From assembly GCA_963837395.1 (NCBI GenBank), contig CAWINI010000004.1, positions 2,699,484 through 2,763,483 on the forward strand: a DNA stretch of 64,000 nt. Direction: 5' to 3'. This document shows, piece after piece, positions 340 to 61,306 of the stretch. Every line of letters starts with the position of its first letter. The stretch's first letter is position 1. The position numbers and the translations under genes were made by a program. The notes under the pieces are model-generated. The model was not told where the DNA came from. It was given only the letters and a program-made list of their open reading frames with translations, and did no database searches. The DNA comes from an uncultured bacterium (GTDB lineage Bacteria > Acidobacteriota > HRBIN11 > JAKEFK01).

Positions 340-1371
340 TTACCAGAGCTTTTTACGAGGCTCTTCTCCCAATCGTTTTGAGACTATAACCGATTGCTCA
401 TATAACTCATCTGCTTTCTGAATATCACCCCGATTATATGCAGCAATCGAAAGATTATACAACGCAAGTGCCTCGCGTGAACCATCCCCGATTTCTCGTG
501 CAAGGGACAGCGATTCTTCCCAATACGGAACAGCCTGTGGTTCGCGGCCTGACGAACTAAATAAGAAGCCGAGGTTTATTAAGGCATTGGCTTGATCTGC
601 CTTATCTCCGGTTTGGCGCGCAATATCTAAGGCTTCTGCGTATTTCTTTTCTGCTTCGGAACGGTTGCCTGCTCCCATTAATGCATATGCCTGGCGAAGA
701 AGATCACCACTTTGGTGCGGCTTTTGTATTGGAGTATCTTCTTTTATCTCTTCAGATTTTACGTCTGGTGCAACTTTTTCTCCTTCCGCCAGCGCCACTG
801 AAATTTCCTTCATCGCACCTGTTTGAATTTCAAATCCTTTGGTCTGGCTTCGATATCCTTGCAGCTGAATTTGCAGCAGATGCTTGCCGTTTAAGATGGA
901 TACATTTTCAAGATTCGTAACACCAAGCTCACGGCCATCCAGCCGAACCGTTGCGCCGGTTGGTGTGGAACGCACAGTTAGCATCGCAAGGCTTCCACGC
1001 TTTTCAGATTCAAACAACTTGATAATTTTTTGCGAAACCAAATCTTCATTTATTTTGTAATCAGGATTCCACTCGATCAGCTTGCGAAATGCAGACTGCG
1101 CTTTCGCTTGTTCGTTGCGATTAAATTCAGCTTGACCTAACAAATCGTAACTTTTTTCAATGATCGATTGTTCATCTTTTATCAAAGTTCGTTGCTTGGA
1201 TTCATTTTCAATCGATTGTATTAATCTTTCTAACATTGGTATAGATTGGTCTTGCTGTCTTGATTCAAACTTCTGCTGTGCTTCCGAAAATCGATCGTTC
1301 CAATCTTTAGATTGTGCATGAACCACAATCGCTGCGAATAAAAATAAAGCTGCAAGCCGAAATCGATTCAC
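340..1371 (-). CDS. secreted TPR-repeat protein with a central PEGA domain
   Basis: N-terminal signal peptide (MNRFRLAALFLFAAIVVHAQ); PEGA-like beta domain (LTVRSTPTGATVRLDGRELGVTN...GYRSQTKGFEIQ); TPR-like C-terminal repeats (LGFLFSSSGREPQAVPYWEESLSLAREIGD...ALYNLSIAAYNRGD); 2-nt gap to the downstream kinase gene. Confidence 0.7.
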   Translation of the reverse strand: MNRFRLAALFLFAAIVVHAQSKDWNDRFSEAQQKFESRQQDQSIPMLERLIQSIENESKQRTLIKDEQSIIEKSYDLLGQAEFNRNEQAKAQSAFRKLIEWNPDYKINEDLVSQKIIKLFESEKRGSLAMLTVRSTPTGATVRLDGRELGVTNLENVSILNGKHLLQIQLQGYRSQTKGFEIQTGAMKEISVALAEGEKVAPDVKSEEIKEDTPIQKPHQSGDLLRQAYALMGAGNRSEAEKKYAEALDIARQTGDKADQANALINLGFLFSSSGREPQAVPYWEESLSLAREIGDGSREALALYNLSIAAYNRGDIQKADELYEQSVIVSKRLGEEPRKKLW

Positions 1372-13083: not shown

Positions 13084-14625
13084 TTACCAGGCGTCTCCTT
13101 GTTTGTATCTTTCAGCTGGAAGTAAATCAAGCACCTTCTGAAATTCTGCTTTTGTAACATCATCCATAGGCACATTTTTAAGGTGATTGTAAGCCAACCT
13201 CCAGGCTGTAATGTGGTTATTGTCCATCAAGGAAGAATCTGCTTTTCGATCAAGCAAAAACTGAACTGCATCTAAATTGCCTTGTTCCGCTGTATTCATT
13301 AGTGCAGTTCTTCCCTTATTGTCTGCAATGTTTACATTAGCTCCAGCCGAAGTAAGTGTTTTTATATCTTCGACATGGTTTCTATCAGAAGCTTGAATGA
13401 GCGCCGTCTTACCATCCTTATCCTTTAGATCGAGATCTGCACTTTTGATCATTGCATCTTTCGCTGCCACAAAGGCATCAGGTGCTATGAAGTGCGGGGC
13501 ATCAAACAGATCCATAATCGCAGTTTTGCCATTTTTGTCTTGTAGATTTAAGTCTGCACCTTTATCTACCATTGCCTTAACCGATTCACCATCGACTGAC
13601 TTGCTTGCTTCCATCAATGCTGTGCGTCCATCCTTATTCATAATGTCAGGATTTTTGGATCGTTTAATCATCTCTTTTACTGCAGTTGGATCTGCGGGAG
13701 TTCCAGGAAAACCTTTCCGCAATGAAAGCATCAATGCTGTGTCTCCGTTTTTATCTTGCAAGTCGGGATCGCTGCGTCTTGCCAATGCTCTAATCACTTC
13801 TGGATTTCCTTTATCGATGGCTTCCATTAATGCCGTTTTGCCGTTCTCATCCTGCATATCGAAACCGGGATTGTGTCTCAACAATTCTCTTACTGAACGG
13901 CCATCTCCTTTGTTCACTGCTTCCATTAAAGGAGTGCGGCCATGATCATCAGGAATACTTGCATCAGCACCTTTTTGTAGCAAAGTTGTTGCGGCGTTGG
14001 AATGGCCATGTTTAACTGCATTCATCAAAGCAGTATTGCCATTTGCATCAATACTGTCCATGACGTTTGGACGATACTGCAACAGAGTTTCCACACTGTG
14101 ATTCAAACCCAGACTCGCTGCCTGCGACAGGGCTGTCTGACCATTTGAATCCTTTACAGTTACGTCTGCATTAAATCTTTTTACCAATGTTTCCATCGCT
14201 GTTTTATTACCGGACGTGGCCGCAAGCATTAAAGCAGTTTTGCCATTCACATCTTTGGAATTTACATTAGCGCCTTTCTTAAGAAGCTCTTCCATTTTCT
14301 TAGTATCATTTTTGAGAGTTGCATCTCTAAATTGATCATCGACTGTTTTCCCTATGTTTGATGTCGCTGTTGGAATTGCTGCCACATGGGGAGATGACAC
14401 AATCTGCGATTGGCGTGCGAAAGAACTCAACGACTGTTCAGCCATTTTTGCTTGAGCTCCACTCTTGGAAAGATTCGTGGATTTGGAATCTGTATCAGAT
14501 ACAGGAGCTTGTGGACTTGAATCCGTTGGAAGATTCTGATCTGACTGAACCTTTTCGGTATTAATTTCAGAATCCGTTGAGTTGGAAATGTTTTTAGTTC
14601 CGATAGGCGGTGTGGTGATGGACAT
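13084..14625 (-). CDS. ankyrin-repeat protein (about 11 ANK repeats) with an S/T-rich low-complexity N-terminus
   Basis: Repeated G-TALM-A...G......LL..GA..N motifs throughout; no signal peptide. Confidence 0.85.
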   Translation of the reverse strand: MSITTPPIGTKNISNSTDSEINTEKVQSDQNLPTDSSPQAPVSDTDSKSTNLSKSGAQAKMAEQSLSSFARQSQIVSSPHVAAIPTATSNIGKTVDDQFRDATLKNDTKKMEELLKKGANVNSKDVNGKTALMLAATSGNKTAMETLVKRFNADVTVKDSNGQTALSQAASLGLNHSVETLLQYRPNVMDSIDANGNTALMNAVKHGHSNAATTLLQKGADASIPDDHGRTPLMEAVNKGDGRSVRELLRHNPGFDMQDENGKTALMEAIDKGNPEVIRALARRSDPDLQDKNGDTALMLSLRKGFPGTPADPTAVKEMIKRSKNPDIMNKDGRTALMEASKSVDGESVKAMVDKGADLNLQDKNGKTAIMDLFDAPHFIAPDAFVAAKDAMIKSADLDLKDKDGKTALIQASDRNHVEDIKTLTSAGANVNIADNKGRTALMNTAEQGNLDAVQFLLDRKADSSLMDNNHITAWRLAYNHLKNVPMDDVTKAEFQKVLDLLPAERYKQGDAW

Positions 14626-26249: not shown

Positions 26250-28353
26250 ATGTCCACGTATGAAAAGCTTGGGGGTTATTTACTCTTCGAGAAACTAAGC
26301 GAGGACAAATTTTCAAATGACTTTCTTGCCGGGCAAATCTCAGGCTCTCAAATTCAGCAGATCTGCATCCTCAAACGTTTTGATCCTGCACTTGCAATAC
26401 TTCCCGATTTTATTCAGAACTTAAATCAAGAATACGAAGCAGTTAAAACTCTTTCTAATCCAAACATCATCAAACCGATATCTTTACTTCAGGATAAAAA
26501 AGAATACGCTGCAGTTTTCGATTTTGTGGAAGGAAAGACGCTACGAACTGTTTTAACAAAGTGCGGACAGGATGGATATCCATTTACCGTAGATCATGCT
26601 CTGCTTGTTGCCAGCCGGTTATGCACAGCCTTGGAATACCTTCATTCCAAGAAATTTAACGATCAGCGTTTGATGCATGGTTATGTTTCACCAGAAACAA
26701 TACTCGTAACTTATGATGGCGAAATTCGCCTTCAATATTTAGGCCTTGCACATGCTTTACTGAAATTTTCCGCAGGGAAAGAAAAATTATTTCACGATTA
26801 CAAAAGTTATCTATCTCCCGAAGTGATTGAAAATGAGAAATGGGGCCGGCCCAGTGATACTTATGGAGCGGGATTGGTTTTATATGAAATGCTCACCGGC
26901 GAAGTGTTAGATCGAACGCTGGATTTGGATGACACAATTGAAAAAGCTTTGATGAATTCAAATTCCGGTGATAAAGAACCCTTGCCTGATGATTTAAAAA
27001 AGCTTTTACGTCAAGCGCTTGCACCCGAAGCTCCATCAAGATTTTCTTCCATTGCTGATATGCGGAAAGCTTTGGATATGTTGTTGTTCTCAAGCGAATT
27101 TTCACCGACTACTTTTAATCTTGCATTTTTTATGCATTCCGTTTTTCGCGAAAATATTGATGAAGAATCAAAGAAAATTGCACTGTACAAGAAGACTGAT
27201 TTTTCAGCACACTTAAAAGAAGAGCCGCTACCTCCGGGGCCGGTTCCTGCAGCTCCAATCAAAAAAACCGTACCAGTTGGTGCAACAGTTGCAACGCAAA
27301 TTGTTACTCAATATGTTCCACAACCAGCTCCAGTCCATCATGTCGAACGCGAGCATCGTGCGCCTGCGCCTATGCATCAGCCAGTTTCAAAACAAGAGAT
27401 GTTTGAAACACCGGAGGAGAAGGAAAAATCAAAAGTTCCACTTCTTGCAGGTGCGTTATTAATTGTCGCTGTAGTCGCAGCAATCATTTACTTCTTTAGT
27501 TTGAAATCTACAAAAATTACAACAGCTCAAATTCCGCAGCAACTTCCGTCGCAAGTATTAACACCAGATCAAATCAAGGCGCAGGAAGCAGAACGAAAAC
27601 ATTTGGAAGAAGAAGCCATCAAAGCTCAAGAAGAAGCGCGGAAAAAAGATGAAGAGTTAAAGGCTTTGCAAGCAAAACTGGATGCACTTGTAAAAGCGCA
27701 ACAAGACCAAGCGAAGAAAAAGGTAGAAGATCTGACTGAAAAGCCGCCGAAGGTAGATCCGGCGGCAATCCGCAAGCTACAACTGGAAGCAAAAAAGTTG
27801 GAAGAAGAAAAGAAGCAGCAACAAGCATTGGCTGAACAAAAGTTAAAAGAGGCTCAATCAACGCCTTCCGCAGTTCAACCGGCTGCAAATGACACTACTG
27901 AGACGCCTGTAAACACGGCTCAGGCGGGTCAAGTTGTTCCAGCTTCAAACAATATTGGTGGTGATCAAAATATTCAACCAGATGAAGTGAAGCCGATTGA
28001 AACAGAGCAGCCACAACCGGAACCTGAACCGGAAAAGCCGGCAGTGGTGGAAGGTCAGGTTGTGGGCACTGGCTCCCGATGTGGTGAAACCGGAAATTGT
28101 AAGTCGAGTCAATCCTGCATATCCACGGATGGCGCAACAAAAGAAAGTAGAAGGAACGGTGATCATCAGCGTATTAATTTCTGAACATGGAGATGTGGCC
28201 GATGTCCGTGTTCTGCGGGAGGCCGGTGGATCCAGCGGTTTGAATGAAGCAGCTATGGCTGCAGTCCGAAAATGGAAGTTTCGTCCCGCCGTCAAAGAAG
28301 GAAAGCGCGTCAAAGTTTGGATGACCTATCCTATCGTTTTTAAACTTCAGTAG
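26250..28353 (+). CDS. pseudokinase-TM-coiled-coil-Pro-rich-TonB_C fusion protein (frameshifted in this assembly at about 28075)
   Basis: N-terminal kinase fold with degenerate motifs (no GxGxxG, HGY in place of HRD, YLG in place of DFG, but ILK, SPE and DxxxxG retained); TM VPLLAGALLIVAVVAAIIYFFSL; K/E coiled coil; QPQPEPEPEKP spacer; the TonB C-terminal domain (VNPAYP...SSGL..AA..AV.KWKF.P) continues in the +1 frame from about 28078 to 28353. Confidence 0.75.
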
Positions 28354-42902: not shown

Positions 42903-45817
42903 ATGACTTTCCAGGATTTAATATTCTCGTTACAACAATTTTGGGCAAAACAAGGTTGTATTATTCAACAACCTTACGATATTGAAGTGGGTGCCGGGAC
43001 AATGCATCCTGAAACATTTCTGCGCGTGCTTGGACGCGATCCTTATAAGGTAGCGTACGTGCAGCCGAGCCGGCGGCCTGCCGACGGCCGTTATGGTGAA
43101 AATCCTAATCGCCTTTATAAACATCATCAATGTCAAGTCATTTTGAAACCCTCACCAAGCGATGTTCAAGATTTGTATCTTGATAGTCTGCGTTCGTTTG
43201 GAATCGATCCTTCGAAACACGATATCCGTTTTGAAGAAGATAATTGGGAATCTCCAACTTTGGGTGCATGGGGAATCGGCTGGCAGGTTCTTTTAGATGG
43301 TTTGGAAATCACGCAGTTCACTTATTTTCAGCAAGCAGGTGGAATCGATCTGTCCCCTGTTTCTGCAGAAATTACTTATGGCCTGGAAAGAATCACCGCG
43401 ATGTTAACTTCAAAAGAAAGTATCTATGACATCGAATGGGTCGAAGGATATACATATGGCCAGGTCCGTCTTGCAGAAGAACAGCAATTCTCAAAATATT
43501 CTTTCGAACTTGCGGATATCGAGTTACATTCTCAATTGCTTTCACAATACGAAGCGGAAGCAAAAAGAATGATTGAAGCAGGACTTTTTCTTGTAGCTTA
43601 CGAATATTGCCTCAAGTGTTCGCATGTTTTTAATGTTTTAGAAGCTCGCGGTGCAATCAGTGTAACTGAAAGAACTGGAATTATTGCACGCATCCGGAAT
43701 TTGGTTTGCCAGGTTGCACAACAGTACACCGGAGGTGCCTTTCAAATGCCTGAGCTTCTTTTCGAAATCGGTTGTGAAGAAATTCCTGCGGAAGATCTAA
43801 TTCGATTACCGGAAGAATTAAAACAATCAGCTCAAAAGTCATTTGAGACAAATCGTATTCAGTATTCCGACGTAAGAGCTTTCGCTACTCCGCGAAGATT
43901 GACTCTGGTGGCGGATCTCCAAGTAATGCAACAGGATCTAAAGGAGCAGCGCACTGGACCCGCTCGCAAAGTTGCTTTTGATGCCGCCGGAAATCCAACT
44001 TCAGCTGGATTAGGCTTTGCAAAAAGTGCCGGACTGCCATTTGAAAAACTCGGCATCAAATCTACCCCCAAGGGTGAATATCTGGTTGCTGAAATTTTGG
44101 TAGCTGGCCGCAAAACCCGGGATGTTCTGATAGAAATAATTCCAGCAATTACCAAAGGACTTTCATTTCGCAAGTTTATGAAATGGGGTTCTGAGGATTT
44201 TTCTTTCGGACGTCCTATTCGAAATTTAGTATTGCTTTTCGATAATGAAATAATTCCGCTTACTATCGCAGGCGTTTCTTCAAGCCGCTTCACGTTCGGT
44301 CATCGTTTCATGGGAAAAAACAAAATAGAAGTTGATAGCTTTGGACAATATAGAAAAACACTTGAAGAAAATGGGGTGATACTTGCGTTTGAAGATCGAT
44401 CAGATCGGATCCAACATCAACTTCATGACCATTCGGTGAAAGCAAATAGTGCATTGCGCGAAGATAAAGAATTATTGGAGATAATGGCGAATGAAGTCGA
44501 ATATCCGGAAGTTCTCACCGGAACATTCCCCGAAGAATTCCTGAAGCTGCCGCAAGAAATTTTGATCAATGCCATGCGGAAACATCAAAAATATTTTTGT
44601 GCTACCGATGCTGCAGGCAATTTACTTCCTGTTTTTTTTACAGTGCTTAATATCCATGCTACAGATCCTGAACTGATCCGAAAAGGACACAAACGTGTGT
44701 TGATGGCGCGGCTGCGTGATGCAGAATTCTTCTGGCGTGAGGATTTGAAATCGGATCTGATTACACTTCAAAATAAGCTGAGCCGTGTTACGTACCACGA
44801 GAAACTCGGTTCGTATACCGAGAAAGTAAGCCGGATGCTAAGAATATCGGATGAAATCATTAAACAGACAAAGCTTGAAGAAATTAGTCCGAAACTTCGA
44901 AAACTGATTCAAATGAGCAAGGCAGATCTGGTGACCTTGATGGTTGGAGAATTTCCTGAGTTGCAAGGAATTATGTCCGGATTGTTTGCCCGCGAAATGA
45001 AATTGCCGGAAGAAGAATGGCAAGCTCTTTATGATCAGTATTTGCCGGCTTCCGCTGAAGGCAGCATGCCTCGAAATCTGTTGGGAGCTTTCTTATCGCT
45101 AATTGATCGGATTGAAATTCTTACATCAGGTTATGTGTTAAACATGATTCCAACTGGTTCTCGCGATCCATATGCTTTGCGCCGTGCAGCTACAGCTGTA
45201 ATCCGAATCCTTTTGGATTTTCGATTAAAAATGGATCTGCGGCCGATCATCGATCAGGTATTCACCCTGTACAATCTCAAAACGAAACTCAGCCGTGATG
45301 AGATGCTGCATGGAGTAATGGAGTTATTGGAAGCGCGATTTAGATTTTTGATGGAACAGCGCGGAATTGCCCACGATTATTTAAATGCAATTTTGACTGT
45401 TGGGTCCGGAATTTTTCTGGATGCATTTAATCGGGCAAATGCACTCTGGTCGAAGAATCAATCTGAAGATTTGAAAACTCTGGCTCGATGCTTTAAAAGG
45501 ATCAATAATATTATTTCCGGCCAGCCTGATCATCAAATTGATCCGGAAAAACTGACTGAGGATGGAGAAAAAAGATTGAATCAGGTGTTTACGGATATGG
45601 AATTCCGGGTCAGTCAGTTAATTCAGGAAGGGCAATATCTCGATGCGCTGGACATTATGGTTACTCTCGGTTCCAGGAGATCGATAATTTTTTTGATGAA
45701 GTGCTGGTGATGGCTGAGGATGAACAATTGCGCAACAATCGCATAGCATTGCTGCAAAAAATCAGTCATTTATATCGTAAAATTGCAGATTTTTCGCAGC
45801 TGCAGATTGAAATGTAA
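42903..45817 (+). CDS. glyQS: fused glycine--tRNA ligase alpha+beta subunits (frameshifted near 45673 in this assembly)
   Basis: N-terminal GlyQ ([19 protein letters not shown]...) fused to GlyS. The C-terminal GlyS tail ([45 protein letters not shown]) lies in the -1 frame beyond the apparent stop at 45710; restoring one C in the CC run at 45673-45674 rejoins the frames. Confidence 0.85.
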
Positions 45818-51521: not shown

Positions 51522-52193
51522 ATGCGTGAAGAGTATGAAGAAAAGTCCTTTAACCCTTTGAAGTTCGGAGTTCTGGCTGCGGCAATCGTAGCTGTGATTG
51601 TTACCTTCCTTTTGTATTTCAACTCTTATCGCGAAACCAGGGATCAGCAAGCTTTGGAAAAGTCGGCAATGCAAGAAGAAATTACCAAGCTAAAAAAAGA
51701 TAAAAGTGAACTGGAGTCTAAGTTGGAAACGCTTGATAAAGCATCGAAGTCAAGCGCAGAAAGTTTAGAAAAACAGCTTAAATCCAGGGATTCACAGATT
51801 AGCAATGTGAAACGAGAAATGGAATCAGATAGCAAAGCAGCTGACGCAAAAATCGCACAAATCAAGAAAGAGAAGGAAGCAGTTGCATCGGATCTGGCGC
51901 AATTGAAAAAAGATTTTGATGATCTGAGTGTAGAGAAAAAGAAAGCATTGGATCAAGTTACAAAGCTACAAAATGATATCAAGATGGTGCGTCAGGAATC
52001 GGATCGGAATGCGAAAGAAATGAAAGTGATGCGCGATAAGTTAAACAAGATAGATGAAGGTGATCGCGCTGCTGCGGATGCAATGGTGGAACAATTGGCT
52101 ACGGCTCGGCAGGAATTAAAAAGCGAACGTGCAGCGCGCCAGAAATTGGAACAAGAATTGACTCAATTACGCGGACAACAACCTCCGCAATGA
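51522..52193 (+). CDS. membrane-anchored coiled-coil protein (hypothetical)
   Basis: One N-terminal TM helix (FGVLAAAIVAVIVTFLLYF) followed by ~190 residues of heptad-rich K/E/L coiled coil; divergent from lexA. Confidence 0.6.
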   Translation: MREEYEEKSFNPLKFGVLAAAIVAVIVTFLLYFNSYRETRDQQALEKSAMQEEITKLKKDKSELESKLETLDKASKSSAESLEKQLKSRDSQISNVKREMESDSKAADAKIAQIKKEKEAVASDLAQLKKDFDDLSVEKKKALDQVTKLQNDIKMVRQESDRNAKEMKVMRDKLNKIDEGDRAAADAMVEQLATARQELKSERAARQKLEQELTQLRGQQPPQ

Positions 52194-52203
52194 TGAATTG
52201 GGA

Positions 52204-52395
52204 TTAGACGACTTTTTCTACTTTGCCGGAGCGAAGGCAGCGAGAGCACACTTTTAATGTCTTCACTGATGCACCAATTTTCACTTTCGCTTTATGAAGG
52301 TTCGGCTTCCATCGGCGATTTGTGACGTTATGGGCATGGCTGACGTTGTGCCCTTTCAGTGATCCTTTTCCGCAAATATCACATTTGTAAGCCAT
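52204..52395 (-). CDS. rpmB: 50S ribosomal protein L28
   Basis: 63 aa, MAYKCDICGKGSLKGHNVSHAHNVTNRRWKPNL...KSGKVEKV, near-identical pattern to bL28 of B. subtilis. Confidence 0.85.
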   Translation of the reverse strand: MAYKCDICGKGSLKGHNVSHAHNVTNRRWKPNLHKAKVKIGASVKTLKVCSRCLRSGKVEKVV

Positions 52396-52552
52396 TTTGT
52401 ATTATTACTCCTCAGTCTGGACACAAGCTCTTAGGCCGGTTAGACGATTTTTGGGGAACGCAGAATATAACATAATCCGCTATTCCCGGCAACTCTCTAC
52501 CGATTCTTAGGCGAGATAGGGTAAGCTTTGCATGCAAGGTGAAGGAGACTCT

Positions 52553-52915
52553 ATGCCGACGCATTTAAAAGGACCATCGATTATTAAGGCAGCCGGAAAC
52601 AAACCGAAAGTGATTGAAGAATTCATTGGACGCGTAAATTCTGGAACTGCCGGTGTTAGCATTGCTCGAATGAAAAATCCGCAAGGATGGATTGAACCTG
52701 GGCAAACACCGGAGTTCGAAGAATTTACAGTGGTTTTGCGCGGAATGCTGAAAGTTCAATCACAATCCGGAACGATTGAAGTTCGCGCAGGTGAGGCGGT
52801 GATTTCACATAAAGGAGAATGGGTTCAATACAGCACACCTGAATCTGATGGCGCTGAGTATATTGCGATTTGCCTTCCAGCGTTTTCTATGGAAACTGTT
52901 CATCGAGACGAATGA
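52553..52915 (+). CDS. small cupin-fold protein
   Basis: About 120 aa beta-rich; AAGGAG RBS 6 nt before ATG 52553 (the ORF-track start at 52532 is less likely); its stop overlaps the next start (ATGA at 52912-52915). Confidence 0.55.
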   Translation: MPTHLKGPSIIKAAGNKPKVIEEFIGRVNSGTAGVSIARMKNPQGWIEPGQTPEFEEFTVVLRGMLKVQSQSGTIEVRAGEAVISHKGEWVQYSTPESDGAEYIAICLPAFSMETVHRDE

Positions 52916-54060
52916 CAAGATCTGAACGACTAATCGACTTCCGTTTCGTTCTGATAGTTTTTTTGATTTCCAGAATTGCTCTTGAAATTGTCGGAATTCT
53001 TTCCGCATTTTATTTTCCGCCGGCTCAAGCCGTATTCAAAATTCGTGATTTGCAATATCACACTCGCCAATCTTTGCCGCAGGAAATGTGGGCGCGTTGG
53101 GATTCTGAATGGTATCTGCTGATTGCAGATCATGGCTACGCTTCCTACGAATATTTTAAGGACGCTGGCGGCGGAAGATATTTACAACAAGACTCTTCAA
53201 AGTTTTTTCCAGCATATCCGATTGCTATTCGCACCTTAACATTCATCACTGGAAACAGTGTGCTCTCAGGCATTCTTATTTCAAATGTTTGTGCGTTGCT
53301 ATTCTTATATTTCTTTCTTCGTCTTGCTTCAAAATTCATGAGCACTGAAAATGCTGTCAATGCTGCAATTTTGTATGTTGTCTTTCCAACAAGTTTGTTT
53401 TTGAGCGCAATTTATGCTGAGGCGATGTTCCTTGCGGCAATTGTTGCTGCGTTTCTTTTCATAGAGGAACGAAAAATTTGGCCCGCCTTGCTTGCCTGTG
53501 CAATTGCAGTTCTTACACGCCCTCAGGGTGCACTTGCGCTTCCGGCGCTTGCATGGCTTGCATGGCAAAAGTTTGAGGCTCGGCGGATCATTGCAACAGC
53601 TGGAATTATTGCTGCTGTTTGTATTCCGCTTGCCGGATATTTGATGTACATCGATAACACTTTCGGATCAATGTCGTGGATTTCACAAAGCCAAACCTAC
53701 TGGCGCGGTGAAATGAAATATCCGTTTTATGCATTTGTACGGTTCTTTCAAAATACGATTGCGATTCATGGTCAACACAATTCGATGATCGATTTCACAT
53801 TTGCTATTGTTCAAATCATTGTGCTGATCTTCTCCTTCCGCAGAATTCCTTTGCCGTACACTTTGTATAGTTTGATTGTCTTATTATTCCCGTTAAGCAG
53901 CTCGCTGTTTTCTTTTTCCAGACTCTGTCTCGCGAATTTTCCCTTCTTTCTTGTATTACCTCCGCTGCTAGGGCGCTGGAATCTGCCTGTTCAAATTTTT
54001 TGCGCAATCATTCTGGCGTTTTTTATGGCAGCGTTTGCGAATTGGTTCTGGGTCGCTTAG
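52912..54060 (+). CDS. polytopic GT-C-type glycosyltransferase (PIG-V / mannosyltransferase-2-like)
   Basis: More than 8 TM helices; WDSEWYLLIADHGY...FFPAYP motif resembling PIG-V (GT76); translationally coupled to the cupin gene. Confidence 0.55.
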   Translation: MTRSERLIDFRFVLIVFLISRIALEIVGILSAFYFPPAQAVFKIRDLQYHTRQSLPQEMWARWDSEWYLLIADHGYASYEYFKDAGGGRYLQQDSSKFFPAYPIAIRTLTFITGNSVLSGILISNVCALLFLYFFLRLASKFMSTENAVNAAILYVVFPTSLFLSAIYAEAMFLAAIVAAFLFIEERKIWPALLACAIAVLTRPQGALALPALAWLAWQKFEARRIIATAGIIAAVCIPLAGYLMYIDNTFGSMSWISQSQTYWRGEMKYPFYAFVRFFQNTIAIHGQHNSMIDFTFAIVQIIVLIFSFRRIPLPYTLYSLIVLLFPLSSSLFSFSRLCLANFPFFLVLPPLLGRWNLPVQIFCAIILAFFMAAFANWFWVA

Positions 54061-55406
54061 TGGGACTCTGTGTCCTTGTGGTTGTTATAAAACGATGACC
54101 TTTTGAAAATAAATCTGTAGGTTATCTCAGACAACCGTTGTGGAACTTCCACAAATTGATTGTGCAACATTTGTGAAACTTTAAAATGACCATCGCGCGG
54201 AATCATCCCTGTTCCAACCTGGATCACCATAAAAAGATTCCAGATGATAAAAAAGATCGAAACTACCGGCACGAGTTTCGATTGCCAATGCGAATAAAGT
54301 GCAGCCAACCCAAATGTAAAAACGATTATGCAGCTAATTAAGTAACGAAGCCCGAATCCAGATCCACCTTGCCAGGTGTCGGCACAAATTACGAAATAAA
54401 ACTGTAAAAGAAACACCAGCACCAGAAGCCAAAGACTTTTTTCAGTTTTTATCAAAGAGAAAAATCCGATAATGCACAAAACGATTACCGGTGTCCAAAG
54501 AAATAAACCATGATAAGTTGAAAAAAGCACAGGAAGAAAATATTTACCGTTCCAAAAAAGTTTACCTTCTAAGTTTCCGGTTGAGTATGGATTGAGTTTA
54601 CCGTTTAGTACCCACCATATGCAGAGCTGAGGAATAAACATCAAAAAGGCAGCAGCAAGGCAAACCAGTTTCAAACGGATTTGTTTGCGATCAAACACCG
54701 GGATTACAAGAAAGAGTGCATCTTGCCATCGCACGATTGCAGCCAAACCACCAACAATGCCGATTAAGAACCATGCGGACACAGAATCTTTGTTACGAAG
54801 TTTGTACCATGTAAACACAAACAAGCTTGTTGTGAAAATGGAAGTTGCATGCGACATCGGTGGAGTAACATACATGTAGTAGACTGCGTGCGCTCCGAAC
54901 CACAGAGTCAGCACAGCCCAAAAAGAGATCCAGGCTGAAAAGAAATCGCGCAGGATTCTGTATTGCAGAAGAAATCCAAGAAAGCCGTAAAGTGCACTCG
55001 CAAAGCAAATCGCAAGCACATATGGAAATGAAAATCCATCTGCCGGATAGTTGTGTGTCGCTTTCACATACAAATCCGCAGCCGCAAAAAATGGTGCCCA
55101 CAAAATCGCACATCCAATCGGCGCATCATTGCGAGCATAGCCAGTGGAATTCAAACGATCGATGAATGCCTTTTTGAAATTCTGTTGTTTTGTTGGAGCG
55201 AGATTGTAAAGGTACTGGTATTCATTTTGAAAATTCAGATCGTGATCTTTCCAAACTGATCGAAGGTATGCGTAATATTGGATTTCATCTCCGCTGTAGA
55301 TTCGCGGGGTGAGAAGAATTAAGGAAACAACAAAGATTAAAACTAAAGCGAGGAAACCGCGTTCTGTAAATAAAAATCCGGCTGGATGGCGTTCCGCCTT
55401 TACCAT
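54057..55406 (-). CDS. GT-C glycosyltransferase of the PMT/ArnT (GT39/GT83) type
   Basis: N-terminal DE-containing loop (YSGDEIQYYAYLRSV), more than 10 TM helices; stop codon overlaps the stop of the convergent gene (TTAG at 54057-54060). Confidence 0.7.
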   Translation of the reverse strand: MVKAERHPAGFLFTERGFLALVLIFVVSLILLTPRIYSGDEIQYYAYLRSVWKDHDLNFQNEYQYLYNLAPTKQQNFKKAFIDRLNSTGYARNDAPIGCAILWAPFFAAADLYVKATHNYPADGFSFPYVLAICFASALYGFLGFLLQYRILRDFFSAWISFWAVLTLWFGAHAVYYMYVTPPMSHATSIFTTSLFVFTWYKLRNKDSVSAWFLIGIVGGLAAIVRWQDALFLVIPVFDRKQIRLKLVCLAAAFLMFIPQLCIWWVLNGKLNPYSTGNLEGKLFWNGKYFLPVLFSTYHGLFLWTPVIVLCIIGFFSLIKTEKSLWLLVLVFLLQFYFVICADTWQGGSGFGLRYLISCIIVFTFGLAALYSHWQSKLVPVVSIFFIIWNLFMVIQVGTGMIPRDGHFKVSQMLHNQFVEVPQRLSEITYRFIFKRSSFYNNHKDTESH

Positions 55407-56899
55407 TTTGTGGAATAAATCAGAACATACTCTTTGCCAAGCAACGGTACTTGATACTCAAGTTTGAACCGTGGATCGTTTGCTAGCAGTTGCTGACGTG
55501 GTTTGGTAACGATATCGGTATTAATCACGATGTAGTCAGGCTTTCGTGTTGAAAGATATTGGATCATCTTTTCATTGATTCCATCGCCTTTTTCGCGATA
55601 TTCCTTGCTTTGCAAATTCAGCCATCCCGAAAAATCTACGAGTTTGCGCTGCGCAAAATATGGAATCACTCCAATTTCTTCAGACGCGAAAGTCGATAAT
55701 GCGGGCGTATTATTTTTCAGCCATAACCCTGCTTCTTTATATGCAGGATAAGCGGTCAACTTTTGATCGCTGCGTGTTTGATCGTAATAGTAAATATTCA
55801 GTAAGAAATAGAAAAAGAAGCAGACCATCACTGTCCCGAACATAAAGAATTGCGACCATTTCGGTGATCTGAAATATTTTTCAGAAACCATTTTCAGGTA
55901 AGTCATTGAAAACAATCCAATGAACGGCAATAGATGAACGTAGTAGCGGCGATTATCAAGAAATGGTCCATAAAAAAACATACAGAAGGTTACCCAGATA
56001 AATAAAAACATGAAACGTGGAAGACGTTCTCGAATTTGTGAAAGTGCCGATATGACTGAAGCTATGATCAATATTGGAAAAAACAGAATCAAGATACCGC
56101 CAAGAAAATGTGGAATTTTCCGGAGCGCCCACGGATTTAATTTTGCACTTCCGGAACTTGGAAGCAGGGTTGAATGCGTTCCAATATAAGCAAACCAGAG
56201 AGCAGGTAAGGCAATCATTACAATTAAACGGACAAACGCGTCTTTCCAACGAAATTCATCATTTCGGTGATCGATATACAAATGATTCAAATACAACAAT
56301 CCCGCAAATAGCGCACCTTCATATCGCGTAAGGATTGCTAACCCAAGAAAGACATAAGTCCAGATTGATTGTGGATGAAACAAATATGTATACAGCGATA
56401 GCAACAGCAGGAATGTGAACAATGTGAAGTCTTGTGGTCCTGCGCTCAGAATCGCTTCGAGCGGAGATGCTGCCCACACTAACGCACTGGTGAAAGCGAT
56501 AAATGGATTCGATGTAATTCGGAAGGCAATCAAAAATAACAATACAGTTGTTGCTAAACTGAATCCAAGATTCACGAACTTCGCTGTAACGAGCGCGCTT
56601 TCTTGAAACAAAAAATGTTGAGCAGCAAGAATGAACGTTAGTAAGGGAGTTGCAGCATGCGAGATTTCGCCTGGATTAAAACTAAAGCCATTGCCTTCAG
56701 CAAGATTTCGAGCATACACATGGAACACGTAAGCGTCATCATAGGTTAAGTAGTAATCTCCAAAAAATAAGAAGTGAATGATGAGTGATAATGCGATTGT
56801 GCCTGTAATGAGCCAGCGGGATTGACTTAGAATCTCTGCTGCGGTTGCTTCCTCTTCTGGATGGAATACTGTTTTCTTAAAAGGAATAATTTCGGTCAT
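55400..56899 (-). CDS. GT-C glycosyltransferase, ArnT / 4-amino-arabinose-transferase-like (PMT_2 family)
   Basis: YDDAYVFHVYARNLAEGNGFSF loop motif typical of the ArnT/PMT_2 family; more than 10 TM helices; overlaps its neighbours by 7 nt and 4 nt. Confidence 0.75.
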   Translation of the reverse strand: MTEIIPFKKTVFHPEEEATAAEILSQSRWLITGTIALSLIIHFLFFGDYYLTYDDAYVFHVYARNLAEGNGFSFNPGEISHAATPLLTFILAAQHFLFQESALVTAKFVNLGFSLATTVLLFLIAFRITSNPFIAFTSALVWAASPLEAILSAGPQDFTLFTFLLLLSLYTYLFHPQSIWTYVFLGLAILTRYEGALFAGLLYLNHLYIDHRNDEFRWKDAFVRLIVMIALPALWFAYIGTHSTLLPSSGSAKLNPWALRKIPHFLGGILILFFPILIIASVISALSQIRERLPRFMFLFIWVTFCMFFYGPFLDNRRYYVHLLPFIGLFSMTYLKMVSEKYFRSPKWSQFFMFGTVMVCFFFYFLLNIYYYDQTRSDQKLTAYPAYKEAGLWLKNNTPALSTFASEEIGVIPYFAQRKLVDFSGWLNLQSKEYREKGDGINEKMIQYLSTRKPDYIVINTDIVTKPRQQLLANDPRFKLEYQVPLLGKEYVLIYSTKW

Positions 56900-57627
56900 A
56901 CTTTGATCATTACGTGATTCGTATTTGAATATTTACTAAAACGAAGACGGAAAATTGTTTGGATAGCTTTAAAAATTTCAGAGCGCGAGATTTTTGATTT
57001 TCCGGCCCGGCGTTCAACAAATATGATTGGAGTTTCAGCGACTCTGAGATTTCTTTTCGCAGCACGAAATAAAATTTCGACCAAATAGGAATATCCTTCA
57101 GCCATTACAGTTTCGAAATCCAGCTCTTCTAATGCACGGTTTTGATATAAACGGAATCCGGAAGTGCAATCGGAAGGTTGTAGTGAAAGAACCAAGTGAG
57201 CCATTGAGTTGGCTATTCTGCTGATCAAGATCCGGACCCAACTCCAATTTTGGGTCGCGCCACCTGGAACATAACGTGAACCAATTACTAAGTCTGCATT
57301 TTTGGATGTTTGGATTATTTCCGGGATATGAACAGGATTATGCGAAAAGTCAGCATCCATGGTGATTGCGGCGTCATAACCTTGATCCATGGCATAACGG
57401 AAGCCAGCTGAATAGGCTGTGCCTAATCCCAGTTTTTTTGCGCGACGTAGAACCTGTACCCGACGCTGTCCTCCGAATTGATCGTCGATTGCAGCCGCTG
57501 TACCATCCGGAGAGCCATCATCGATCACAAGAACATCGACCGGTTCAGGCAGATCTAAAATCGCTTTAACCAGGGGAATGATGTTTTCCCTCTCGTTATA
57601 GGTAGGAATTAAAACCAGTGTTTTCAT
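56896..57627 (-). CDS. GT2 polyprenyl-phosphate sugar synthase (Dpm1 / ArnC / GtrB-like)
   Basis: LVLIPTYNEREN...VLVIDDGSPDGT...DADFSHNP GT-A motifs; 243 aa. Confidence 0.85.
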   Translation of the reverse strand: MKTLVLIPTYNERENIIPLVKAILDLPEPVDVLVIDDGSPDGTAAAIDDQFGGQRRVQVLRRAKKLGLGTAYSAGFRYAMDQGYDAAITMDADFSHNPVHIPEIIQTSKNADLVIGSRYVPGGATQNWSWVRILISRIANSMAHLVLSLQPSDCTSGFRLYQNRALEELDFETVMAEGYSYLVEILFRAAKRNLRVAETPIIFVERRAGKSKISRSEIFKAIQTIFRLRFSKYSNTNHVMIKV

Positions 57628-57665
57628 CGAAATACAGCATAATTCAATGCATTAGTATAGCATTT

Positions 57666-57710
57666 AGAGTATTGAGTTCCGAGTACTGAATACTGAGTTA
57701 TCCGGAACTG
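57666..57710. repeat. second copy of the GAGTACTGA heptad-palindrome family, in the GT2 / zinc-ribbon divergent region
   Basis: ccgagtactgaatactgagtt at 57679-57699; flanking inverted arms AGTTCCG/CGGAACT. Confidence 0.45.
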
Positions 57711-57748
57711 ATATAATTGCTGAAGTCTTTAAACTTTGGGGAGAGTTC

Positions 57749-57907
57749 ATGGCAAAAACAGTTACGGGGAAAGTTGGTGACAAGGTTGTTGAGAGTGGGA
57801 ATTACATTTGTATGAACTGCGGACATTATCAATTTTTCGAAGCACATGATGATTTCGAAGATTGTACGTCATGCGGGGAACCGGATATTGTCTGGGAATT
57901 GGAGTGA
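57749..57907 (+). CDS. 52-aa CxxC...CxxC zinc-ribbon protein (not in the ORF track because it is under 60 aa)
   Basis: ATG 57749 with GGGGAGA RBS; MAKTVTGKVGDKVVESGNYICMNCGHYQFFEAHDDFEDCTSCGEPDIVWELE; two CxxC pairs. Confidence 0.5.
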   Translation: MAKTVTGKVGDKVVESGNYICMNCGHYQFFEAHDDFEDCTSCGEPDIVWELE

Positions 57908-58746: not shown

Positions 58747-59724
58747 CTATTTTAACCCGACCAACCAGCCGCCTTCCTGACCGTTAGAACGAATTACGTA
58801 AGTCCCTCTTAGATTTCTACCTTCCATCTTTCCAACAAAATCTACCGCGCGCCCATCTTTTTCAGTCATTGAAAACTCGACTGGGAATGATGATGTCTTT
58901 CGATATTGACCAAAAACTTGAAACATCCCGATCGTTTTTCTGAATTCATTTTTGAATCCGCCGCTTCCACCAAGATCCATTCTCCACACTAATGTAGCTG
59001 TGCCTGATATGGAACTTCCTTGCTGCCGCAGTTTTAGATCCAGATCCAGAGTAGACTCGCGAATGTTGGAATAAAGTTTATTGTCCATTGTTCCGCTCCA
59101 GGTGCCCTCAACTTTTGCTACTCTGGCAGGAAGTCCAAAACTTAATGAAAGCAGTTTCGATTTTTGATCTGCGGGGACAGTATTTAAAAAATCAACGGCG
59201 TAATAACGTCCGCCGCTTTGATCATTTCCAACAGCGTAAAAATTTTCGATCTGTTCGAAAACGAGACCACCTGAAGCTACAATTCCAGTATCTTCAGGAC
59301 TTTTTACTTGAACAAAAGTGCGATAGTACGACCACAACAACATTTGCCACCATTTTGCCAATTCCTCTAATTCAACTCCGCGCTGATTTAATTTGCTGTA
59401 GGCATAAGTATCTTCAGACAAAACTCGCAACAACGGCGATTTCGTACCATCAACTGCTCCATCCGCAAAAAGCGAATAGGCATTATCTTGATTCGAGATT
59501 GTTACCTGGGCATCTGGATTGGATTGAAAATAAGTAACAGCGTTGTTCAGATTTTTCGCAACTATTTCGGCTCGCTCACGACTGCTTCCTGCATCATCTT
59601 TTGCCACCAAAACCAAAAGTGGACCTATGTTTGTTTCAACCGAATATTCATTAAAACCGAGAGGCGTTGCATATGGTTTTGCTACAAACGAAAGTCTGAA
59701 CACTTCCTGCGGGTTTTCAATCAC
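58747..59724 (-). CDS. hypothetical soluble protein, translationally coupled to the upstream 2xFHA gene
   Basis: 325 aa; no TM helix or signal peptide; no recognisable motif; 8-nt overlap with the 59717..61306 gene. Confidence 0.55.
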   Translation of the reverse strand: MIENPQEVFRLSFVAKPYATPLGFNEYSVETNIGPLLVLVAKDDAGSSRERAEIVAKNLNNAVTYFQSNPDAQVTISNQDNAYSLFADGAVDGTKSPLLRVLSEDTYAYSKLNQRGVELEELAKWWQMLLWSYYRTFVQVKSPEDTGIVASGGLVFEQIENFYAVGNDQSGGRYYAVDFLNTVPADQKSKLLSLSFGLPARVAKVEGTWSGTMDNKLYSNIRESTLDLDLKLRQQGSSISGTATLVWRMDLGGSGGFKNEFRKTIGMFQVFGQYRKTSSFPVEFSMTEKDGRAVDFVGKMEGRNLRGTYVIRSNGQEGGWLVGLK

Positions 59725-61306
59725 AGGAGGTGCCCGGCAAAATTATGAAGTCCATTGTATTTTTTGTCCGCATATTATTGATTCGAACTGTAACCGGAAC
59801 CTTAAGCCCCTCGTCAGGAATGTTATCTGCAGGACTCGGAACTGTGGCAATAATGTCATCACCATCCACCCGAGTACCAGCGAGATCGCCGCCGAATAAC
59901 ACACTCGTGGATTGACCGGGCATATTCGTTTTGATTCGCACTTCAGATCCAACTCCGCCTGAAAGGGGATTCATATTTTGAATGCGAGGGGCAATCAGCA
60001 CTTTGAAATTGATTCGCGAAAGAACATCTTTTTCGCCCATCACCAGAATTTCTGAATCGGTTTCCGCACCAGAAAGATTGGGAAAATCAGGTAATTTTAT
60101 TTCCAAACCCTCTTTATCGCGCTTTAAGACAAATGCATCTTGATCCAAAATCTTTACAGCTTTCACATCTTCAGGATCAAAGCTTCCCTGAACATGAATT
60201 AAATCCCCAGTACTCCCTTTTTCAGGACTCGCTAAGGGTGGCGTTAATGAACCTTTTCCCCAAATGAAAAATATGATCAGACCTAAAACTGAAAGCCCCA
60301 ATACTATTCCGCCGATAGCTCCAAGTGAATATCCACGGCGGACTTCTGGTAGTTGAACAGGAACTTCTTCTCTTTCTTCAACAGCGACTGCACTTTCTGC
60401 AGCTTCTTCTTCAGATTTTTTCTCTGCCGCTTCAGCACCTTCTGCAGCAGACTCTGCACCTTCTCCGGCAGCAGCCTCTTCAGCGATTTTTTCTCCTTCT
60501 TTCGCAGCAGCATCCGTTACTTCTTTTGATTGCAATTTACCCGGTGTGCTGTCGGTCATTTGCATATCTTCCAGCTTTGATAACAATGCTTCCGCGGGAT
60601 TGCTGAAGATGAGAATTACAGGAGCTGAGCTTGATTGTTGTCCGAATCGAATTTCATCACGGTCACGCAATCTGCGACTTCCACTGATCCGCTCATCGTT
60701 GATGAAAGTTCCATTGGCACTGTTTAAATCTTTAATGAAAGCACCAGACCATGACAATGAGAGTTCAGCATGTCTGCGTGAAACGCTGGGATGTTCGATG
60801 ACGATATCAACACCGCTTGTTCTGCCGGAAATCAGAGTTGTGCCTTCAGTCAGCTCATACTGTTTTCCATTTTCCGGGCCGCCCATCAAAATGACTCTCG
60901 GTTTTTCGGCCGTGCTGGTTTGCCAGGAACCGAGAACTTCCATGACCATCTGTCGCGCAACCTGAACTGTTGCCCCAGAATCGATCCCCAAAACGTTGAT
61001 GCCTGTGGAAAAATACAGATCGAAGGTTTGAATTCTAATCAGATCGCTGTCGCTAAGAAGCTTTTTTTCACCAGCCACCAGGCGCTCACCATTGAGAAAA
61101 GTTCCATTGATGGAACCTCGATCGATCAAGTAGTAGTTGTCGTTTTCTTTTTCGATTTGGGCGTGGTATCCCGAGACGGACGCCATCGGGAGTTGAATAT
61201 CATTCTCTTTTAATCGGCCGATAGTAATTAACGGCTGATCAAACTCATAGCTGTAATCCTTAGTCCCGCCCTCGGTGAGCTGGGCTTTTACGACCAACTT
61301 GATCAT
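59717..61306 (-). CDS. membrane protein with two N-terminal FHA domains, an acidic Ala/Glu-rich linker, one TM helix and a ~180-aa extracytoplasmic domain
   Basis: FHA1 (ITIGRLKENDIQLPMASVSGYHAQI...YYLIDRGSINGTFLNG); FHA2 (TLISGRTSGVDIVIEHPSVSRRHAEL...FIKDLNSANGTFIND); TM LGAIGGIVLGLSVLGLIIFFIW. Confidence 0.8.
   Translation of the reverse strand: MIKLVVKAQLTEGGTKDYSYEFDQPLITIGRLKENDIQLPMASVSGYHAQIEKENDNYYLIDRGSINGTFLNGERLVAGEKKLLSDSDLIRIQTFDLYFSTGINVLGIDSGATVQVARQMVMEVLGSWQTSTAEKPRVILMGGPENGKQYELTEGTTLISGRTSGVDIVIEHPSVSRRHAELSLSWSGAFIKDLNSANGTFINDERISGSRRLRDRDEIRFGQQSSSAPVILIFSNPAEALLSKLEDMQMTDSTPGKLQSKEVTDAAAKEGEKIAEEAAAGEGAESAAEGAEAAEKKSEEEAAESAVAVEEREEVPVQLPEVRRGYSLGAIGGIVLGLSVLGLIIFFIWGKGSLTPPLASPEKGSTGDLIHVQGSFDPEDVKAVKILDQDAFVLKRDKEGLEIKLPDFPNLSGAETDSEILVMGEKDVLSRINFKVLIAPRIQNMNPLSGGVGSEVRIKTNMPGQSTSVLFGGDLAGTRVDGDDIIATVPSPADNIPDEGLKVPVTVRINNMRTKNTMDFIILPGTSCD

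Follow-up and report, generated by a model that had tools for sequence, protein, structure and literature searches.

A stretch of 64,000 nucleotides from an uncultured bacterium of the Acidobacteriota (assembly GCA_963837395.1, contig CAWINI010000004.1, positions 2,699,484 to 2,763,483 of the forward strand; hereafter the window) carries a cluster of predicted glycosyltransferase genes. Three overlapping genes on the minus strand encode a family 2 glycosyltransferase (GT2) and two polytopic proteins of 499 and 449 amino acids (aa), both predicted to be glycosyltransferases of the GT-C type. This operon converges on a plus-strand pair encoding a small cupin protein and a third GT-C protein. The reading we favour, and hold to be fairly probable, is that the operon serves extracytoplasmic glycosylation, in which lipid-linked mannose would be transferred to a polysaccharide or glycolipid of the cell envelope. 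The predicted features of the cluster are as follows, ORF standing for open reading frame and PfDPMS for the dolichyl-phosphate-mannose synthase of Pyrococcus furiosus.

52553-52915, plus strand: small cupin protein, 120 aa (weak cupin-family matches)
52912-54060, plus strand: PIG-V/Gpi18-like GT-C protein, 382 aa, apparently accessory, convergent with the operon (PF04188)
54057-55406, minus strand: GT-C protein of 449 aa with a PMT_2/ArnT-like core (predicted fold; PMT_2 in homologues)
55400-56899, minus strand: AftB-like GT-C protein of 499 aa (family profile against AftB)
56896-57627, minus strand: GT2, 243 aa, most likely of the DPM1/Ppm1 type, first gene of the operon (PF00535; match to PfDPMS)
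54057-54060: TTAG common to the convergent stop codons, TAG of the plus-strand PIG-V-like gene and TAA of the minus-strand 449-aa gene
57628-57748: intergenic region 5′ of GT2, between it and a divergent 52-aa zinc-ribbon ORF

The family 2 glycosyltransferase

GT2 matched PF00535 in Pfam at 2e-29. Its closest solved relative was PfDPMS (PDB 5mlz; E 9.5e-33, 116.8 bits), with whose catalytic domain it shares 38% identity over 220 aligned positions. ArnC and the GtrB-like sll0501 scored about 44 bits (E ~1e-10) in the PDB search, and processive synthases about 30 bits (30 bits for chondroitin synthase). A first-pass annotation, made from the sequence alone, had described the enzyme as Dpm1/ArnC-like. 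Its placement among DPM1/Ppm1-like polyprenyl-phosphate-sugar synthases holds, whereas the ArnC-like half of the description is not borne out by these scores; neither is the case that would have told against that annotation, a processive synthase of the cellulose or chitin type.

Functional residues of PfDPMS (PMC5526996) were mapped onto GT2 through the alignment. The residues binding metal and GDP (D91, R202, K208, E12 and D39), those contacting O2/O3 of mannose (D89, H94 and L69) and those engaging the acceptor phosphate (R117, R131 and S135), the last being ‘conserved in bona fide DPMSs’ (PMC5526996), are all kept in GT2, so that the acceptor triad is intact. Position by position, with PfDPMS named first, E12 corresponds to E12, D39 to D37, L69 to L68, DADLQH at 89-94 to DADFSH at 91-96, R117 to R118, R131 to R132, S135 to S136, R202 to R206 and K208 to K212. 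The residues that differ are Q93, F177 and K178, which are S95, Y179 and S180 in GT2; Phe177 and Lys178 are counted, together with Asp89, His94 and Leu69, among the mannose-specific contacts of PfDPMS (PMC5526996).

No hydrophobic segment or transmembrane domain was found in GT2. This is no argument against its activity, because PfDPMS deprived of residues 230-352, its transmembrane domain, still gets to the membrane and is fully active, and mycobacterial Ppm1/D2 without its membrane partner is sufficient for the synthesis of polyprenyl-phosphate-mannose (PMC3485146). From its sequence, GT2 can be predicted with high confidence to be a polyprenyl-phosphate-sugar synthase and with moderate confidence to use mannose. 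Most likely it is a non-processive polyprenyl-phosphate mannose synthase of the DPM1/Ppm1 type.

The GT-C proteins

The 499-aa protein had no match in Pfam, and a PDB search with the single sequence found nothing. A profile of 19 homologues, however, returned one solved match, mycobacterial AftB (9dlf, E 3.7e-22), over residues 36-392, the transmembrane domain of AftB. The family and AftB have the motifs DD...RNL.GNG..FN.GE, L.RPE and YG.L.P...AK in common. AftB, which we take to be CAZy family GT89, is a terminal beta-(1->2) arabinofuranosyltransferase of the GT-C_A class (PDB 9dlf/9dlh). Its D62, within the DD motif, is catalytic, and mutation of R221 or R372 abolishes function (PMC12041299). 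In the 499-aa protein D54-D55, R192 and R318 align with D61-D62, R221 and R372 of AftB, and within the family D54, D55 and R192 are each conserved in 19/19 members and R318 in 17/19.

An AlphaFold (AF2) model of the 499-aa protein, with a predicted local distance difference test score (pLDDT) of 77 and a predicted template modelling (TM) score (pTM) of 0.79, gave Foldseek matches of which the first 19 were all GT-C enzymes (E down to 5e-7, TM 0.5-0.59). Among the names were STT3, ArnT, ALG9, ALG12, PglB, AftB, DPY19, PIG-M, Pmt and AftA, and the lowest root mean square deviation within these 19 was that of AftB. The model comprises a polytopic domain of ~380 aa followed by a C-terminal alpha/beta domain of ~115 aa, which by analogy would lie in the periplasm. 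Profile and model agree in presenting this protein as a putative GT-C enzyme homologous to AftB. It had previously been called ArnT/PMT-type, of which the GT-C assignment is retained and the subtype replaced by AftB-like. Close orthologues are rare, with ~22 clusters at ≥58% identity in 5.8 billion proteins, and a scan of genome contigs with narrow search patterns found one species-representative genome with a locus of this type.

P0024, which is distantly homologous to the 499-aa protein (26% identity), adjoins a 557-aa HAD-UbiA fusion (locus L004, 10001-13288, contig ERZ25068043 ctg12649). HAD-UbiA is the architecture of PRP-PPPRS, which makes undecaprenyl-phosphate-ribofuranose in three-component pentofuranose systems (PMC11127046). 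With P0024 beside HAD-UbiA and the window protein beside GT2, the adjacent donor module varies within the AftB-like family. The P0024/HAD-UbiA pair is itself probably a pentofuranose-adding system that has yet to be described.

The 449-aa protein was modelled with greater confidence (AF2, pLDDT 90.2), and its Foldseek matches were ALG12, ArnT, STT3, PglB, Pmt4, ALG9, Emb and PimE. PMT_2 scored below threshold in the protein itself (20.4 bits against a cutoff of 26.1) and was matched by 11 of its 24 homologues. Within the family D40 is found in 24/24 and E41 in 22/24 members, whilst D54, D56 and R226 are invariant. By its predicted fold the 449-aa protein is assigned as a GT-C enzyme.

The third protein, of 382 aa, passed the gathering cutoff of PF04188 (PIG-V) by a small margin (23.0 bits against 22.4), the match being marginal and confined to residues 60-211. 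The same family was matched by 20 of its 22 homologues (best E 1.1e-9). PF04188 comprises mannosyltransferases dependent on dolichyl-phosphate-mannose and presumably corresponds, as PIG-V/Gpi18, to CAZy GT76. PMT_2 remained below its cutoff here too (20.5 bits). A loop motif, W-D64-S-E66-W, is invariant in the family (D64 and E66 in 22/22), and R203 is nearly so (21/22, with one Lys). These similarities identify the protein as a predicted GT-C enzyme.

Family profiles of the 449-aa and 382-aa proteins retrieved nothing from the PDB, and single-sequence searches with all three GT-C proteins likewise gave nothing useful. In hhalign the 449-aa and the 382-aa families were each linked to the AftB-like family with 95% probability. 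The links among the three families (95%, 95% and 44%) centred on an Arg-containing segment that reads TRxEG, TRPQG or VRWQD. All three families have conserved acidic residues after the first transmembrane helix and an arginine that aligns with R221 of AftB. Taken together, the Foldseek, PF04188, PMT_2 and hhalign results agree with the earlier proposal of three GT-C proteins and speak against unrelated transporters.

Conservation and surroundings of the locus

The cluster was compared with seven related loci: L001 (identical), L010 (85-96%), L002 and L011 (~77%), a 43085-bp contig from JGI (79%), L009 (64%) and L003 (61%). Genes for GT2, the 499-aa type and the ~440-aa type stood next to one another in 7/7 loci, with order and strand unchanged, and wherever these core genes overlap the overlaps are identical. 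L003 and L009 lack the PIG-V-like gene. It is co-directional with the operon in L002, L011 and the JGI contig, and so inverted relative to the window, and lies there behind an inserted gene of the YCII family (12836-13234 in L002). The insertion and the inversion appear to mark a recent local rearrangement. The cupin gene is missing from L003, L009 and the JGI contig, and L002 has it convergent with the PIG-V-like gene, hence without start/stop coupling between the two. Since the PIG-V-like and cupin genes are absent or differently arranged in related loci, they are best regarded as an accessory module, and the comparison points to GT2, the AftB-like protein and the 449-aa type as the functional core. 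The first-pass annotation had one lipid-linked donor feeding three transferases; the pairing of GT2 with two of them is found in 7/7 loci, whereas the third would be an accessory partner in the lineage of the window only.

The five genes are real and not chance ORFs, because gene calling done independently on other contigs yields equal lengths and orthologues of all five proteins, 59-100% identical, occur in related contigs. Read from the sequence, the cupin and PIG-V-like genes are joined by ATGA (52912-52915), the GT2 stop and the 499-aa start overlap by 4 nt in another ATGA (56896-56899), and the 499-aa stop and 449-aa start overlap by 7 nt in ATGGTAA (55400-55406). The cupin start has a GGAG Shine-Dalgarno sequence 7 nt upstream, and an alternative ATG at 52532 would give a protein of 127 aa. 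Coordinates, overlaps and the shared TTAG were all as first annotated. The five genes of that account stand as well, although it left out rpmB (52204-52395, minus strand), just upstream of the cupin gene. The rpmB gene (L28, 63 aa) lies between a coiled-coil gene and the cupin gene and is absent from the gene calls of L001; the glycosylation operon of L003 and of L009 leads straight into it.

The tail-to-tail overlap of 4 nt between stop codons was found only in close relatives of the window, reads TTAA in L010 and is absent from more distant relatives. As the PIG-V-like gene varies among loci, the TTAG overlap is best explained as a lineage-specific by-product of rearrangement and not as a functional feature. 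Terminator-like hairpins gave no excess that could explain it (6 found against 6.0 expected in shuffled sequence), and transcription from the two directions probably produces overlapping 3′ ends. Upstream of the three overlapping genes the sole non-coding stretch is 57628-57748. It would be expected to contain the promoter of the operon; a search for sigma-70-like sites returned none within it.

The cupin protein had weak matches only (Cupin_2 3.6e-4, EutQ 2e-3, PDB 2pyt 0.01). With 82-92% identity to its counterparts in L002, L010 and L011 it is more conserved than its neighbours, and its membership of the glycosylation system is uncertain. On the far side of rpmB, a 223-aa protein (51522-52193, plus strand) begins with a single transmembrane anchor and continues as a long coiled coil rich in Lys and Glu; its gene is kept beside LexA in all related loci and had no family match. 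As a candidate flippase it was rejected for this architecture. Divergent from GT2, the 52-aa ORF (57749-57907, plus strand) encodes a CxxC...CxxC zinc ribbon with a weak match to DUF1451. Identity across all related loci is 63-88%, and a convergent FHA gene ends 1 nt away from the stop codon of the ORF. A role as a DPM2/DPM3-like membrane partner of GT2 was considered and rejected, the zinc ribbon being soluble.

The genes flanking the cluster are ordinary chromosomal housekeeping genes (RuvB, QueA, a SIS protein, FHA proteins, rpmB, LexA, DinB, PPDK, GlyQS and AlaS). The FHA genes were considered as members of the system; they are conserved as neighbours only in a narrow clade and have no evident functional link. 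The FHA gene at 58747-61306 (minus strand) is uninterrupted in relatives, as one ORF of 825-859 aa, and is split in the window into ORFs of 529 and 325 aa by a frameshift near 59717-59735 (in tblastn, residue 533 marks the change from frame -3 to -1), reflecting either a pseudogene/frameshift or an assembly error. Elsewhere in the window, GlyQS (42903-45710, plus strand) is a fusion of the alpha and beta subunits of glycyl-tRNA synthetase (935 aa). A 951-aa protein (1374-4229, minus strand) has two matches to Ser/Thr kinase domains and PEGA and is followed by a PEGA-TPR protein (340-1371, minus strand), and a second kinase gene lies at 26250-28184. The kinases and FHA genes make this a signalling-rich neighbourhood. 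A protein of 513 aa (13084-14625, minus strand) consists almost entirely of ankyrin repeats (Ank_2 5e-59), and such proteins are uncommon in free-living bacteria.

Donor, acceptor and relation to known systems

In the mechanism that we favour, GT2, as a soluble enzyme probably bound to the membrane surface, would transfer mannose from GDP-mannose to polyprenyl phosphate at the cytoplasmic face. The polyprenyl-phosphate-mannose so formed would be flipped across the membrane by a factor encoded outside the cluster. In the periplasm the 499-aa and 449-aa proteins would use it to place mannose on an envelope glycoconjugate (a polysaccharide or glycolipid, most likely) at two positions or in two steps, each acting via its loop-1 aspartate and a conserved phosphate-binding arginine. 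In the lineage of the window the PIG-V-like protein, paired with the cupin, would probably draw on the same donor for an extra, lineage-specific decoration. The gene structure, the assignment to families and folds and the conservation of catalytic residues and of the three-gene core are shown by the data, whereas we infer which sugar is carried, that its donor is shared, that transfer is periplasmic and what accepts it. As regards the acceptor, homologues with 34-38% identity to the 449-aa protein are found within polysaccharide clusters with GT4, GT2 and methyltransferase genes in 3/3 contexts, and a 55% homologue of the PIG-V-like protein adjoins a Wza-type exporter. For these reasons a glycan or glycolipid is weakly favoured over a protein.

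Several observations weigh against this scheme. K178 of PfDPMS, which contacts O4/O6 of mannose, is a serine in GT2, as is Q93, and GT2 reached no NCBIfam equivalog cutoff, the best being PpgS with 70 bits against 370. The other four proteins likewise had no NCBIfam equivalog, and names were not drawn from the sub-threshold matches (PpgS, AglJ, ArnC, LA_3751/2 and AZOBR_p60025). No flippase candidate was found in the cluster or in the 64-kb window (ORFs of 70-200 aa with three or more hydrophobic segments are absent), nor was a GtrA, SMR or MATE flippase gene found in the orthologous loci, and no GDP-mannose genes were found in the window. As the seven loci all belong to a single narrow clade, their shared gene order speaks only weakly for a functional link, and adjacency alone ties the PIG-V-like and cupin genes, both missing in two lineages, to the operon. 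Moreover, AftB itself uses a pentofuranose donor and P0024 lies beside a polyprenyl-phosphoribose synthase of the HAD-UbiA type, so that the AftB-like 499-aa enzyme need not use the product of GT2.

This last point leads to a different account of the cluster, in which the AftB-like enzyme would use a polyprenyl-phosphate-pentofuranose made elsewhere, as do AftB and enzymes of the GT136 type, and only the 449-aa protein would use the product of GT2. AftB is the sole solved sequence relative of the 499-aa protein, several orthologues carry the name ‘arabinofuranosyltransferase’ in JGI annotation, and P0024 has its PRP-PPPRS-type neighbour. Yet P0024 is only distantly related (see above), neither the window nor the regions flanking orthologous loci contained UbiA, DprE or HAD genes, and the 499-aa gene shares ATGA with the stop of GT2 and overlaps the next gene, in an order kept throughout the related loci. 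A mixture of donors therefore seems quite improbable. Protein O-mannosylation, in which one or more of the GT-C proteins would mannosylate Ser/Thr of secreted or membrane proteins in the manner of actinobacterial Pmt or streptococcal GT-C enzymes, draws on the weak PMT_2 matches of the 449-aa and 382-aa proteins and on Pmt4 among the Foldseek matches. One report describes streptococcal GT-C enzymes, fed by a GtrB-type synthase, that glycosylate Ser/Thr-rich regions (PMC12041528). However, no PF02366 (PMT) or MIR domain was found in the GT-C proteins, the two PMT_2 scores stay below the cutoff, and the Pmt matches ranked under ALG12, ArnT, STT3 and AftB. The polysaccharide clusters around distant homologues of the 449-aa protein argue in the same direction, as does the fact that AftB, to which the 499-aa protein is closest in sequence, acts on a polysaccharide. 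We regard protein O-mannosylation as unlikely, and of the two acceptor options first put forward, a protein or a decorated envelope glycan or lipid, it is the weaker.

Decoration of lipid A or of the inner core of lipopolysaccharide in the style of ArnT or RgtA-D differs in kind from these two, being a special case of the envelope glycan scheme that does not contradict it. ArnT is among the top structural matches of both modelled proteins (499 and 449 aa), one donor serving several transferases has a precedent in RgtE, a GT2, and the several Rgt GT-C enzymes that go with it, and the organism is taken to be diderm because BamD is encoded in the window. Against this, there are no lpx, waa or kdt genes nearby, the sequence profiles had no ArnT match in the PDB, and GT2 scored 48.4 bits against the ArnC equivalog NF007986, for which the cutoff is 529. 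No ArnA- or ArnB-like gene was found among window ORFs of at least 150 aa, a search that covered the 64 kb only. These last results accord with the initial view that the cluster is not a simple system for modifying lipid A with Ara4N, and the probability that lipid A or core is the acceptor appears low. Transfer of lipid-linked mannose to an envelope polysaccharide or glycolipid is thus retained as the best account of the operon.

The closest parallel to such a scheme is provided by Ppm1 with PimE, MptA/B/C and Pmt in mycobacteria and corynebacteria, where a DPM1-like GT2 without transmembrane segments of its own makes polyprenyl-phosphate-mannose (PMC3485146) and several GT-C enzymes consume it outside the cytoplasm. 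In contrast to that system, no Ppm2/Lnt-like membrane partner lies beside the window GT2, the host is a diderm acidobacterium and not an actinobacterium, and synthase and GT-C enzymes share one operon. The GT-C proteins are also not orthologues of PimE or the Mpt enzymes, with no sequence match to PimE (9dm5). Likewise, GT2 resembles PfDPMS and other DPM1 enzymes in its catalytic domain, whereas the cluster encodes no small membrane subunits like DPM2 or DPM3 and the carrier in a bacterium would be a polyprenol in place of dolichol. The 382-aa protein passes the PF04188 threshold that defines PIG-V/Gpi18, mannosyltransferase II of glycosylphosphatidylinositol (GPI) synthesis, although the match is marginal; bacteria make no GPI anchors, and its acceptor must therefore be different.

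In GtrA/GtrB/Gtr* and GT136 pentofuranose systems (PMC11127046), and in RgtE with RgtA-D/F, a cytoplasmic polyprenyl-phosphate-sugar synthase is likewise followed by GT-C enzymes that act on a finished glycan or on lipid A outside the cytoplasm, and RgtE, which supplies both RgtD and RgtF, shows that one synthase can serve several of them. Unlike these systems, the window has no GtrA/MATE/SMR flippase gene in the cluster or elsewhere in its 64 kb, and its operon fixes two GT-C genes. Its synthase is of the DPM1 type and has no transmembrane domain, whereas GtrB and ArnC are membrane-anchored (GT2 scored 44 bits against that type and 117 against PfDPMS). AftB shares with the 499-aa protein, as modelled, a polytopic domain followed by a C-terminal domain that would be periplasmic. 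However, identity in the structural alignment is only ~16%, and the C-terminal domain of the window protein is much shorter (~115 aa) and without demonstrated sequence homology. The partner in the window is a hexose-type GT2 where AftB depends on the UbiA/DprE pathway to decaprenyl-phosphate-arabinose, and the acceptor cannot be mycobacterial arabinan.

On its own the cluster is a routine predicted glycosylation locus. The scheme of a lipid-linked sugar synthase with GT-C transferases is already known and no new mechanism is required. Polyprenyl-phosphate-mannose chemistry is best known from the actinobacterial envelope and from the endoplasmic reticulum of eukaryotes and its archaeal counterpart. 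If our assignments hold, periplasmic glycosylation dependent on this donor extends to uncultured Acidobacteriota, and the locus offers an initial way into the envelope glycoconjugates of this phylum, which abounds in soil and is difficult to cultivate. GT-C enzymes include targets of anti-tubercular drugs, and a compact operon of three genes, in which an AftB-like enzyme is found with a hexose donor, could help to define what sets the donor specificity of this class. What is less usual is the combination of a DPM1-type synthase lacking a transmembrane domain, in a diderm that is not an actinobacterium, with a coupled AftB-like GT-C protein and no flippase gene. To our knowledge AftB has so far been described only as an enzyme of the mycobacterial cell wall that depends on decaprenyl-phosphate-arabinofuranose. 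A more tentative suggestion, which we consider possible though doubtful, is that a GT-C enzyme of the AftB type has been re-coupled to a DPM1-type synthase by a swap of donor modules and contributes to a mannosylated envelope glycolipid or lipoglycan in Acidobacteriota. Such a product outside the Actinobacteria, if real, would be an undescribed one.

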